A stretch of DNA of 64,000 nt from Methanoculleus sp. (GCA_036794525.1 DAIRGM010000009.1:779-64778); one strand, 5' to 3'; shown: positions 30,106 to 50,018, numbered from the stretch's first letter. Numbers and translations are program-made. Notes: generated from the sequence alone by a model not told the origin.

Positions 30106-31380
30106 CTATGGTACTACCCAAATCCGCGAACTACCCCCGCCTACGCAGGGGGCTTCCTGCGAGTGTACTGGAATTTCCAGACCTGTTTGTCGCAGATTAT
30201 CGGCGAACTGCCGGTAGCCCGTTCGCAGGGCATTCTGTGATAGGAACCGTACCATGATATTGACCGCACTGTTCCGGTCTCGATCCATGGTGTTCCCGCA
30301 CTCACATTCTATAACTCGCTTCCAGAGCGGCATGTCGTGAAGCGCCCCGCAGACACAACAGGCTTTTGTCGTGTTCTGTTCATCGATTTTTATTACTCTC
30401 TTACCTGCAAGGGTTGCCTTGTAGGTCAAAAATCTGATGAACCGCGACAGGTGTCCCGTGTTCTGGGTGGCGCGGTTGAGCCCCGGGGTCGCCTGCCGGG
30501 ACCGGGGCATCTGCTTCACGCTCAGATCCCCAACGAGGATCGTGTTAGCGCGAGTGTTCTCAACGATTTTCTTGCTCAATTTGTGCTGGAAATCTTTGAT
30601 CTGGTTGCCCTGTTTTCGTTCACACTTCCGCTTGAGCCGGTTCAGCTTCTGCCACTTTCGACTCTTCTTCTTACAGTGGTCTCGCCGGGCCTGCAACTCA
30701 GCGATCGGGGTTTTCCAGTACTTGTCCGGGCGAGCCACAGAAAACCCAATGAACTTCCCGTGACTGTTCACCCCGACGTGCTGGGTCACCCCGAGGTCAA
30801 ACGCTTGGTAGAGCCCGTTGTCACGGTACTCCTGCGCCGGCTGGACCTCATGAACGATCGATACATAGTACGCGCTCTTGATGTCGTCGTAGAAGAGATC
30901 AACCTGTTTGACGTTGATGAACTGAGAACCAGCGGGTAGGGCGAAGATCAGTGGCACCGTGTTGTAGAAGTGGGAGAACCAGATCTGGTCCCTCTCGATC
31001 TTGAATCCGCTCTGGTTGTAGCGTAGCGTGCAGAAGTGGTCTTTTCCCTTGAACCCTGGGGGATTTGCCCCCTTATCCCCATTCTGTCGCAGGGCGAAGA
31101 ATGAGCGAAAGTCGTCGTCCAGGGACTTCAACGTCGTTTGAAGCACTTTTGAGTAGACCCACTTGTACTCGGGATACTTTTCCTTCAACTTGGGGAGGGC
31201 GTTCGCCTGCTGCACATATCCGATGTACTGTTTGCCGGGTCTGTCTTTGTTTTCCTGGTAATTTCGGTTCCGCTCGGCAAGCGCAAAATTGTAGACTAAT
31301 CGGCACTTCTCGGAGAGATGCCAGAGCACGTCCTCCTGCTCAGGTATGACCTGAATCCTGATCTTTGCGGTGATGTGCAC
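30106..31380 (-). CDS. tnpB: TnpB (IS200/IS605 OrfB-type RNA-guided endonuclease family), variant RuvC-II
   Basis: 424 aa, GTG start. RuvC-I FDLGV. ILVGDLS sits where I/V-E-D-L is expected. KIDEQNTTKACCVCG...CECG zinc finger. RuvC-III MDRDRNSAVNI. Confidence 0.88.
   Translation of the reverse strand: MHITAKIRIQVIPEQEDVLWHLSEKCRLVYNFALAERNRNYQENKDRPGKQYIGYVQQANALPKLKEKYPEYKWVYSKVLQTTLKSLDDDFRSFFALRQNGDKGANPPGFKGKDHFCTLRYNQSGFKIERDQIWFSHFYNTVPLIFALPAGSQFINVKQVDLFYDDIKSAYYVSIVHEVQPAQEYRDNGLYQAFDLGVTQHVGVNSHGKFIGFSVARPDKYWKTPIAELQARRDHCKKKSRKWQKLNRLKRKCERKQGNQIKDFQHKLSKKIVENTRANTILVGDLSVKQMPRSRQATPGLNRATQNTGHLSRFIRFLTYKATLAGKRVIKIDEQNTTKACCVCGALHDMPLWKRVIECECGNTMDRDRNSAVNIMVRFLSQNALRTGYRQFADNLRQTGLEIPVHSQEAPCVGGGSSRIWVVP
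30129..30280 (-). ncRNA. predicted omega-RNA (reRNA) scaffold of TnpB-1, overlapping the tnpB 3' end
   Basis: By analogy with characterised TnpB systems, the guide RNA is made from the tnpB 3' end and right end. Terminal hairpin CCCCC..GGGGG followed by TAGTT. The putative guide would be the flank CGCGGATTTGGGTAGTACC (30128 downward). The 5' limit is a guess. Confidence 0.3.
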
Positions 31381-48288: not shown

Positions 48289-48633
48289 TCATGCCGGGTC
48301 CGTAAAGAGCCCGATGTAGCCCGCGATGAGTGCGATGACGAAGACGAAGAGGTAGACCGGGAGCGCGAGCGCCCCCTCAAGGACAGAGAAGACTTCGACG
48401 CCGGTGATCTCGCCGATGAGCAGGAAGAGCCGGACGAGGAAGATGACCAGGAGCACGGCGCCGGATGCGCCGAAGACGGGGCCGGGCAGGCTCAGGGGGA
48501 GTGGAAGCGCCCCGAAGAGGTCGCCGATGAGGAAGAGGACCGATATCAGGATGAGCAGCCCGAGGTTGGCGTTGAGGAACTCGACGATCTGGAGGAAGAT
48601 CGGTGTCTGGACGTAGGCGTCCGCGAGGATGTT
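48289..48633 (-). pseudogene. 3' part (114 codons) of a small polytopic membrane-protein gene split by TnpB element 2
   Basis: NILADAYVQTPIFLQIVEF..., hydrophobic throughout. The reading frame is closed by TAG immediately upstream, inside the element's left end. It joins in frame to the 30-codon fragment at 49929-50018. Confidence 0.65.
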
Positions 48634-48711
48634 CAACTAATTCCGCAAGGAGTCCCCGGTTTTCAGGCCGGGGAGGAATTGCGGTTCACACACAACGCTA
48701 AATATCTTTGA

Positions 48712-49893
48712 GTGAAATTAGTATGTGTGCTCACCACAAAGACCATCATCCTCAAGATGGACTGTCCTGACTCCGATCTTCTCGACCGGACGGTACAGAC
48801 CTACACCGAGGGGATGAACTACGTCTCTGCGGTCGTGTACAAACTCGGCAAACCCAAGGGTTCTGCCGCCCTCCAGACGATCGTCTATCCTGCTCTCCGG
48901 GAACAGATCGGTCTCAAGTCCCAGATGTCCTGCAATGTCGTCCGGCAGGTCACAGGAACCTACCGGACACTCCAGGAGCAGATCAAGGCGAAAAAGACCG
49001 AGTGGCAGCAGATTACGTATGCTCCTACATCCATGACCTTCTCCTTCGGGCGGGACTTCTCCCTCGACGGAGACGAGATCGGGCTTACGACTCTTGACGG
49101 GAGAAGGAAGTATCGGTTCTTCCGGTACCCTCACATGGAGCAGTATCTCGACGGAACATGGAAGTTTGGCGCGTCAAAACTGGTGAAACACCTGGATGGG
49201 ACGTACTATTTCCATCTCTGTTGCGAGAGGGAGACAGAGACCCGTGAGGTCGCGGAGTCTTCGACCTTCATGGGGGTGGATGTGGGTCAGAACTTCCTTG
49301 CGGTCGCCTCGACGACCGACAAGAAGTGTCGGTTCTTTTGTGGCGGGAAAGCCAAGGATCTCCGCAACATCTATTCTACTCTGCGGAAACGGTTGCAGTC
49401 GAAGGGCACCCGGGCGGCAAAGAGGATGCTGAAGCATCTCTCTGGCCGGGAGAGACGGCTGATGACTGATATGAACCACCGCGTCTCGAAGGCGATCGTT
49501 CGTTTTGCCGTTCAGAACAAGGTTGATGTGATCGGGCTGGAGGATCTCTCCGGGATCAGGGAACGGACTGAGACCTCGAAGAAGCAGAGGTACACCCATC
49601 ACTCCTGGGCGTTCTTTGAACTCCAGACCTTTATCGAGTACAAGGCACGGGAGAAGGGGATATCGATGGTCTATGTCGATCCGGCCTACACTTCCCAAAC
49701 CTGTCCTCGATGCAACCATATCAGTAAGAACAATCGGAATGGAAGATCGTTTGTCTGCGAATGCTGCGGGCACTCGCTCCATGCTGATCTTATCGGTGCT
49801 CGGAACATCGAGTCCAGAGCACGCACCTACAGGTATACCCTGGAGGTGCAGGGGTGCAGTCAACCACCCATACGAGAACTATCGACACGATAA
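48712..49893 (+). CDS. tnpB: TnpB (IS200/IS605 OrfB-type RNA-guided endonuclease), canonical D-E-D RuvC
   Basis: 393 aa (GTG start; exact start uncertain). RuvC-I GVDVGQNF, RuvC-II VIGLEDLSG. VDPAYTSQTCPRCN...CECCG zinc finger. RuvC-III LHADLIGARNI. Confidence 0.9.
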   Translation: MKLVCVLTTKTIILKMDCPDSDLLDRTVQTYTEGMNYVSAVVYKLGKPKGSAALQTIVYPALREQIGLKSQMSCNVVRQVTGTYRTLQEQIKAKKTEWQQITYAPTSMTFSFGRDFSLDGDEIGLTTLDGRRKYRFFRYPHMEQYLDGTWKFGASKLVKHLDGTYYFHLCCERETETREVAESSTFMGVDVGQNFLAVASTTDKKCRFFCGGKAKDLRNIYSTLRKRLQSKGTRAAKRMLKHLSGRERRLMTDMNHRVSKAIVRFAVQNKVDVIGLEDLSGIRERTETSKKQRYTHHSWAFFELQTFIEYKAREKGISMVYVDPAYTSQTCPRCNHISKNNRNGRSFVCECCGHSLHADLIGARNIESRARTYRYTLEVQGCSQPPIRELSTR

Positions 49894-49928
49894 AGTCTCA
49901 AGCCCCGCCCGAGAGGAGCGGGGTAGTT
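49780..49928 (+). ncRNA. predicted omega-RNA (reRNA) scaffold of TnpB-2
   Basis: By analogy with characterised TnpB systems. Terminal hairpin CCCCGC (49903-08) / GCGGGG (49918-23), followed by TAGTT at the element end. The putative guide is the flank GACTACGGCGAGCACGATCA (49929 onward). The 5' limit is a guess. Confidence 0.3.
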
Positions 49929-50018
49929 GACTACGGCGAGCACGATCAGGAAGACGACGATCCCGATGACTCTCGATACCAGGACTCCGGCGACTGACTC
50001 CTTCCTGTGCCCGGTCAT
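49929..50018 (-). pseudogene. 5' part (30 codons) of the membrane-protein gene split by TnpB element 2
   Basis: Hand translation from ATG 50018 (GGAAGGA 8 nt upstream): MTGHRKESVAGVLVSRVIGIVVFLIVLAVV. Reading then continues into the element for 22 unrelated codons to a stop. Confidence 0.6.

Follow-up and report, generated by a model that had tools for sequence, protein, structure and literature searches.

A TnpB-only element of the IS200/IS605 type splits a membrane-protein gene in Methanoculleus: exact ends, target motif, and predicted guide RNA

This report concerns a transposable element in a 64,000-nucleotide stretch of DNA from the methanogen Methanoculleus sp. (GCA_036794525.1, DAIRGM010000009.1:779-64778), hereafter the window. 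The element is 1,295 bp long (48637..49931, + strand; CTAATTCC...GTAGTTGAC), carries tnpB, and interrupts a 144-codon membrane-protein gene on the minus strand. Comparison with empty sites in related species, with copies in other genomes, and with metagenome contigs gave the ends of the element to the base. We consider it very probable that this is a non-autonomous TnpB-only (IS1341) element of the IS200/IS605 family, which was inserted by peel-and-paste transposition and encodes an intact TnpB and an omega-RNA. An earlier note on this DNA had recognized a tnpB-only element of the IS200/IS605 style within a split gene; the ends determined here lie 3 nt from the ends that it proposed.

Results

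When the two minus-strand fragments (the 3' fragment from 48289 and the 5' fragment up to 50018) were joined, they gave a single open frame of 144 codons, and their translations were exactly as written in the earlier note. The larger fragment matched single open frames of about 146 to 200 codons in 23 of 36 genomes of the same genus, and weaker relatives were also found in other families of the order. The joined 144-residue protein could be aligned from residue 1 to residue 143 or 144 with loci in 19 congeners, at 64-88% identity and without any gap at the junction. A gene for a 94-amino-acid acidic protein adjoins the ortholog at all 19 loci, and polX is also present within the flank retrieved at nine of them. 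These shared neighbors and the gap-free alignment identify the 19 loci as orthologous empty sites; the element is absent from the membrane-gene site in all 19 relatives. The congeners have single, intact, syntenic genes at this place and not two genes; thus, one ancestral membrane-protein gene was split by the insertion, as had been proposed. Searches of Pfam and NCBIfam found no family for either fragment or for the intact ortholog.

The exact position of the insertion can be read from codon 30 of this gene, which encodes Leu in all relatives (TTG, CTG, CTC, TTA, or CTA). The closest relative (L009) has GCC GTA TTG AAC ATC around the junction. In the window, TTG AAC ATC is unbroken at the left junction, where the + strand reads GATGTTCAA and then CTAATTCC. 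The surviving TTG shows that the inserted DNA is 48637-49931 and that the gene is split into 29 and 115 codons: codons 1-29 are at 49932..50018, and the remainder of the ancestral gene, from codon 30 (TTG, Leu) through codon 144 and the stop, is at 48289..48636, both on the minus strand. The empty site of L009 reads GAGGATGTTCAA/TACGG, and the reconstructed junction reads TTCAA/TACGGC (here and below, slashes in sequences mark the ends of the element). Because the bases flanking each boundary differ, the boundaries have no slack in the comparison with L009, and excision of 48637-49931 restores the sequence of the relatives with nothing left over. The TTG at 48634-48636 now opens a frame of 115 codons (48289..48636, minus strand), and the C-terminal 80% of the membrane protein may in principle be translated if transcription enters from the left end of the element.

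A genus-wide DNA search with 48637-49931 found copies with 89-91% identity in eight other genomes; the sequence outside these copies diverges. On metagenome contigs, similarity is lost just upstream of the target motif (before 48631) and after 49931. Two metagenome contigs from related organisms (X8 and X9) bridge the site at the length expected when it is empty. We rejected them as conspecific empty alleles; they carry sequence variants of other species (L013/L018-like and L010-like) and confirm only the length of the empty site, not an allele of the window's strain. No terminal inverted repeats were found, since no inverted pair joins the two termini, and no flanking direct repeat or target duplication was found at the insertion.

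The placement in the earlier note was 48634-49928, at GTT/GAC, with GACTACGG as the guide and the end of ...GGATGTT as the motif next to it. The empty allele would then read GATGTTGACTACGG, with its junction at GAGGATGTT/GACTACGG. It is true that removal of this segment likewise restores an open frame of 144 codons and that GTT is present at both junctions. However, this join divides the gene into 30 and 114 codons and makes codon 30 a GTC (Val), although all 19 relatives encode Leu there and the TTG of L009 survives at the left junction; the junction in L009 is also not the predicted one. In addition, the last triplet of the right end is GAC in all copies at unrelated sites (GTTGAC in every full copy), whereas CAA is host-gene sequence that completes the conserved pentanucleotide TTCAA and changes with the site (TTCAA, TTCAG, TTCAT) like a flanking target. 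The BLAST matches of the foreign copies cover exactly positions 1-1295 of 48637-49931. We regard the shifted placement as having almost no chance of being correct. Since GAC belongs to the conserved right end, the guide is predicted to start with TACGGCGAGC at 49932, and since CAA belongs to the host, the motif for TnpB is predicted to be TTCAA.

TTCAA (48632..48636, + strand) lies directly 5' of the left end; in the empty sites, it belongs to the host gene. At six independent insertions, five of full copies and one of a miniature inverted-repeat transposable element (MITE), TTCAA or TTCAG stands directly before the left end, and GTTGAC closes the right end. The independent sites include TTCAA/GTAATT...GTTGAC/GCAACC, TTCAG/CTGATT...GTTGAC/CCCTCT (one orthologous site in five genomes, and a second contig in one of them), TTCAA/CTAACT...GTTGAC/TCCTCT, and, in a metagenome-assembled genome (MAG) of Methanofollis, TTCAA/CTAATT...GTTGAC/ACACCG. 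Two paralogous elements in the same genome have TTCAT in front, and paralogs end in GGGGTAGTT[G/C]AC. Five tnpA-bearing elements of another Methanoculleus species share the TTCAA target within five different upstream flanks. The insertion target is TTCAA at this site and TTCAR for this element in general. Under the rule in this family that the TnpA target and the transposon-associated motif (TAM) of TnpB coincide, TTCAA is also the predicted TAM. An incomplete literature search, which is a weak sign of novelty, found no TnpB with a TTCAA TAM.

The predicted guide segment (49932..49947, + strand; TACGGCGAGCACGATC) consists of the first 16 nt of the right flank, directly 3' of the conserved right end; the length of 16 nt was taken by analogy with ISDra2 (PMC8612924). 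At the empty site of L009, TTCAA is followed by a 24/24 match to the right flank of the window, and the more distant relatives have TTCAG, TTTAA, or TTGAG and one to six mismatches within the first 16 nt. The sole near match to TAM plus guide in the element's own genome is the right-end junction, where TTGAC replaces TTCAA.

The + strand contains an open frame of 393 codons at 48712-49893. The frame is open from 48712 only in the window copy. Because the third codon of this longer frame is a stop in five other copies, the conserved GTG at 48727 is likely the start of tnpB, which gives a coding sequence of 388 codons (48727..49893). Some 25 nt before this GTG there is a TAAATAT box (48699-48705), which possibly fits a leaderless archaeal transcript. 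The protein matched OrfB_IS605 (PF01385) and the Cas12f1-like TNB domain (PF07282) in Pfam above the cut-offs, and guided_TnpB (NF040570) in NCBIfam with 213 bits (cut-off 100); a second NCBIfam match, to Cas12f2, had 136 bits, far under its cut-off of 450. The C-terminal half aligned with solved structures of Cas12f and TnpB chains (E about 1e-25). The best-scoring chains are titled Cas12f, and several others bear no title beyond 'Transposase'. The key residues of RuvC-II (glutamate, in LEDL) and RuvC-III (aspartate, in HADL) are present and align with those of the solved chains, as does the zinc ribbon (CxxC...CxxC). Judged from its sequence, TnpB is intact and catalytically complete. Among the nine full copies, variation falls mainly on the third positions of codons (8-19 of the 30 in a 90-nt bin), and roughly 3-10 of 60 first and second positions vary in all bins but one. 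This clustering at third positions indicates that tnpB is under purifying selection.

Both ends of the element can form hairpins. The left-end subterminal hairpin (48643..48684, + strand; inverted repeat I1) is imperfect and has two tiers (CCGCAA, TCCCCGG ... CCGGGGA, TTGCGG; DNA fold z = -3.4). Ten family members, some of which bear tnpA, have kept this hairpin, and some of its pairs have changed on both sides. The right-end terminal hairpin (49902..49924, + strand), as folded, is GC-rich, GCCCCGCCC-GAGA-GG-A-GCGGGGT, and is followed by AGTTGAC. Between copies, a C-G pair of this hairpin has been exchanged for G-C in a compensatory manner, and distantly related TnpB elements of the genus have the hairpin as well. 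A candidate HgcC RNA (RF00062) at 48583-48696 was rejected; it scored 24.4 bits against a gathering threshold of 50, and half of it lies over host coding sequence. The similarity is limited to the hairpin CCCCGG..CCGGGGAGGA, and the weak match can be explained by the UUCA-tetraloop motif that the haloarchaeal IS1341 elements share with Rfam HgcC (PMC4615843).

Several observations point to a structured RNA at the right end. The 172 nt up to the right end have an RNA fold z of -4.7. Third-position variability, high elsewhere in tnpB, drops to 2 of 30 in the last full bin (49792-49881), and a MITE derivative keeps exactly this low-variability segment. Five paralogous tnpB genes of the same genome (contigs C35, C31, C10, C61, and C2) are matched at their 3' ends, and in the same orientation, by a covariance model of the last 140 nt; their proteins are only 22-41% identical to the window TnpB. 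Across an alignment of 26 matches, both sides have changed in 36 of the 41 pairs, and pairing holds in 93% of the cells but in only 36-44% once the partners have been slid by one to three columns; these counts come from an alignment fitted to the model structure and are somewhat inflated, which weighs against the structure, but the margin is still large. We infer that 49792-49931 (+ strand) is an omega-RNA scaffold of about 140 nt with five helices, which overlaps the last 100 nt or so of tnpB and the right end and would continue into the flank-derived guide.

A further pairing, between 49858-49869 (AGTCAACCACCC, in the loop of the third helix) and 49921-49932 (GGGTAGTTGACT, at the right end), covers 12 nt with 92% complementarity and could be a pseudoknot of the omega-RNA or a guide for the TnpA cleavage site. 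We left it as unproven. Most relatives that end in GTTCAC are without a compensating GTGAAC, and the one that has it shows another spacing. The upstream arm also lies within the coding sequence.

No tnpA was found inside 48637-49931 when six frames were read. The own assembly contains one Y1 transposase gene (PF01797), on contig C95, and we rejected it as the cognate transposase: its hairpin is CCCACGAC-TTCA-GTCGTGGG, it has no matching end motifs, and it belongs to a separate IS200-like unit. Downstream of it (L037, G000:C95:21220-24543) lie a gene for Zn_ribbon_2 and a toxin-antitoxin pair of the MNT (nucleotidyltransferase)/HepT type. In another Methanoculleus species (G006), tnpA-bearing elements have the same left-end hairpin as well as the TTCAA target. 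The statement in the earlier note that the element is immobile or mobilized in trans was reasonable and can now be refined, as the single tnpA in the assembly resides in a different IS200-like element.

Shortened and displaced relatives of the element were also found. A derivative resembling MITEs and palindrome-associated transposable elements (PATEs) is 225 bp long (L046, G008:C30:60167-60391) and joins the left end (positions 1-96) to the final 136 nt; it, too, follows TTCAA. A remnant of the right end alone (G022:C69:13555-13721) is 96% identical over 168 nt. The Methanofollis sp. MAG (L071, L072) carries an 88% identical copy with a frameshifted tnpB at its own TTCAA site, and a 93% identical fragment (L074) is on a 1,621-bp contig binned as Synergistaceae; the copies in these two groups reflect either transfer between genera or mis-binning. 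In the metagenomes of a second study, ten years later, word shares were 0.93-0.96, which suggests that the same insertion persists there.

The own genome contains at least five further TnpB elements (C35:929-2166, C31:11235-12473, C10:12657-13794, C61:3133-4431, and C2:20585-21330). Two other loci without a tnpB match, C26:~6055 (right-end motif) and C90:16007-16183 (covariance-model match only), resemble right-end or omega-RNA remnants. Several of these elements and remnants share the right-end module GCCCCGCCC-loop-GGGCGGGGTAGTT[G/C]AC, and the architecture of the end and the RNA seems to be common to divergent TnpB lineages. The window itself has a second, distantly related TnpB-like frame at about 30247-30651 (G000:C44:31025-31429, minus strand), of 430 amino acids and with 25% identity over the C-terminal part.

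Discussion

The element has the features of the IS200/IS605 family: a TnpB with a split RuvC domain and a zinc ribbon, hairpins at both ends, oriented insertion, and neither terminal inverted repeats nor target duplication. In this respect, the classification in the earlier note was borne out. On the basis of the exact ends, the target motif, the oriented insertion without duplication, the intact and selected tnpB, and the conserved structured RNA region that abuts the flank, we propose the following course of events; what is inferred in it is that the RNA is transcribed and processed, that DNA is cut, and where TnpA comes from. The steps are drawn by analogy with ISDra2 (PMC8612924), the Geobacillus IS605 elements, and transposon retention by TnpB/IscB (bioRxiv 10.1101/2023.03.14.532601). 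A single strand would have been inserted directly 3' of TTCAA, on the antisense strand of the membrane gene, between codons 29 and 30. A Y1 TnpA that acts in trans would excise the top strand and rejoin TTCAA to TACGGC. TnpB with the RNA of the element would recognize TTCAA plus TACGGCGAGC... and cut the vacated or empty site, and repair from an occupied copy would then restore the element and favor its retention. The occupied site would escape cleavage in the manner usual for such elements, as its right end shows TTGAC and not TTCAA. Two observations fit this retention model, namely TTCAA with the 24/24 match in L009 and the near match in the own genome, which occurs only at the TTGAC junction.

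Some points weigh against this picture. TTCAA was derived from insertion sites and so reflects the target choice of TnpA, not cleavage by TnpB. The right-end hairpin of the window has a GAGA loop and a bulged A, and the other full copies have TTCA or TTTA. Contigs of a metatranscriptome (X15) cover parts of the element as well as a copy located elsewhere; these are assembled contigs, from which neither strand, ends, nor RNA nature can be read. Current mobility is doubtful, as the own assembly (92% complete, 96 contigs) contains one copy of the element, and the tnpA on C95 shares 40% identity with the G006 type and has another hairpin next to it.

One alternative is that the element is a dead relic, with the ends and the broken gene as described here and with TnpB and its RNA no longer expressed or active, so that the copy persists because nothing excises it. 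The single genomic copy and the lack of a matching tnpA in the assembly would fit such a relic, as would the divergence of the window copy, which differs by about 10% from all other copies, and its deviating right-end loop. On the other hand, no part of the reading frame is missing, and every catalytic and zinc-binding motif is present; the copies differ mostly by synonymous changes and hardly at all in the RNA region, a pattern that speaks for selection on both products, at the least until recent times; and TnpB-only elements are commonly maintained. We judge the relic to be improbable. A role in regulation appears far less plausible still, either as an RNA-guided regulator recruited by the host (compare the nuclease-dead TldR type) or as an insertion that modulates the downstream polX. 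Here tnpB does point to polX, 227 bp downstream of the right end, and the 5' fragment of the gene runs antisense to the guide region, but the RuvC residues are intact, and a site that is empty in all 19 relatives with copies at unrelated sites is what one expects of a mobile element, not of a regulator that has become fixed. The non-autonomous IS200/IS605 element with an intact TnpB and an omega-RNA remains our preferred explanation.

The paradigm of peel-and-paste transposition by a Y1 transposase is IS608 of Helicobacter pylori, an autonomous element with both tnpA and tnpB. The window element resembles IS608 in strand-specific insertion 3' of a short fixed motif, in the lack of a duplication, and in a right end that closes with a related but not identical motif (TTGAC against the TTCAA target), but differs in that its transposase must come in trans. 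ISDra2 of Deinococcus radiodurans (Karvelis et al. 2021, PMC8612924) also inserts 3' of a pentanucleotide that is its TAM, TTGAT as compared with TTCAA here. Like ISDra2, the element has subterminal hairpins, no terminal inverted repeats or target duplication, a TnpB with RuvC and zinc ribbon, and, as predicted here, a guide-RNA scaffold over the 3' end of tnpB and the right end with a guide from the flank. Unlike ISDra2, it lacks its own tnpA and has an archaeal host, and its activity is only predicted; the ISDra2 TnpB was not identified among the solved chains matched by the window TnpB.

Another close parallel is with the IS1341-type elements of Halobacterium salinarum that have sense-overlapping transcripts (sotRNAs; Gomes-Filho et al. 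2015, PMC4615843), which are likewise archaeal and TnpB-only. The predicted RNA at the 3' end of tnpB corresponds to these sense-overlapping RNAs, and L046 corresponds to their fusions of left and right ends (PATE/MITE). The TTCA loop at the right end of most Methanoculleus family members may be compared with the UUCA tetraloop of the H. salinarum elements, whereas the window copy has GAGA; the host also differs in being a methanogen. Cas12f (type V-F) is similar in its miniature size and in the RuvC and zinc-ribbon half, which can be aligned; unlike Cas12f, the present system has no CRISPR array or adaptation genes, and its guide would be encoded by the transposon. In the incomplete literature search, no paper that pairs TnpB with Methanoculleus was found.

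Conclusions

The element is an ordinary member of a well-known transposon family, and its biology is that of textbook IS200/IS605 elements. The case is an exceptionally clear one, however: the broken gene, the empty-site orthologs, and the independent copies made it possible to define the ends, the target and predicted TAM, the first base of the predicted guide, and the extent of the predicted scaffold without experiment. An assay based on the placement in the earlier note would have used a guide 3 nt off and a wrong TAM, and would probably fail. A natively matched set of TnpB, omega-RNA, and TAM from a methanogen could offer a practical basis for genome editing in this group. In the Methanoculleus lineage that carries the element, a conserved membrane protein of unknown function has been knocked out.

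A wider view can be offered only tentatively, and we hold it with clearly less confidence than the identification of the element. The window may encode an active archaeal TnpB of 388 amino acids, similar to Cas12f, which would use a TTCAR TAM and a five-helix omega-RNA of about 140 nt and police a perfectly matching target in a sister species. As TnpB lineages in this genome with only 22-41% identity share the GGGGTAGTT[G/C]AC right-end module and the plan of the scaffold, a single type of TnpA and a single RNA architecture might serve many TnpB lineages in Methanoculleus, as this sharing suggests. Such a TnpB might be a ready-made programmable nuclease for methanogens.

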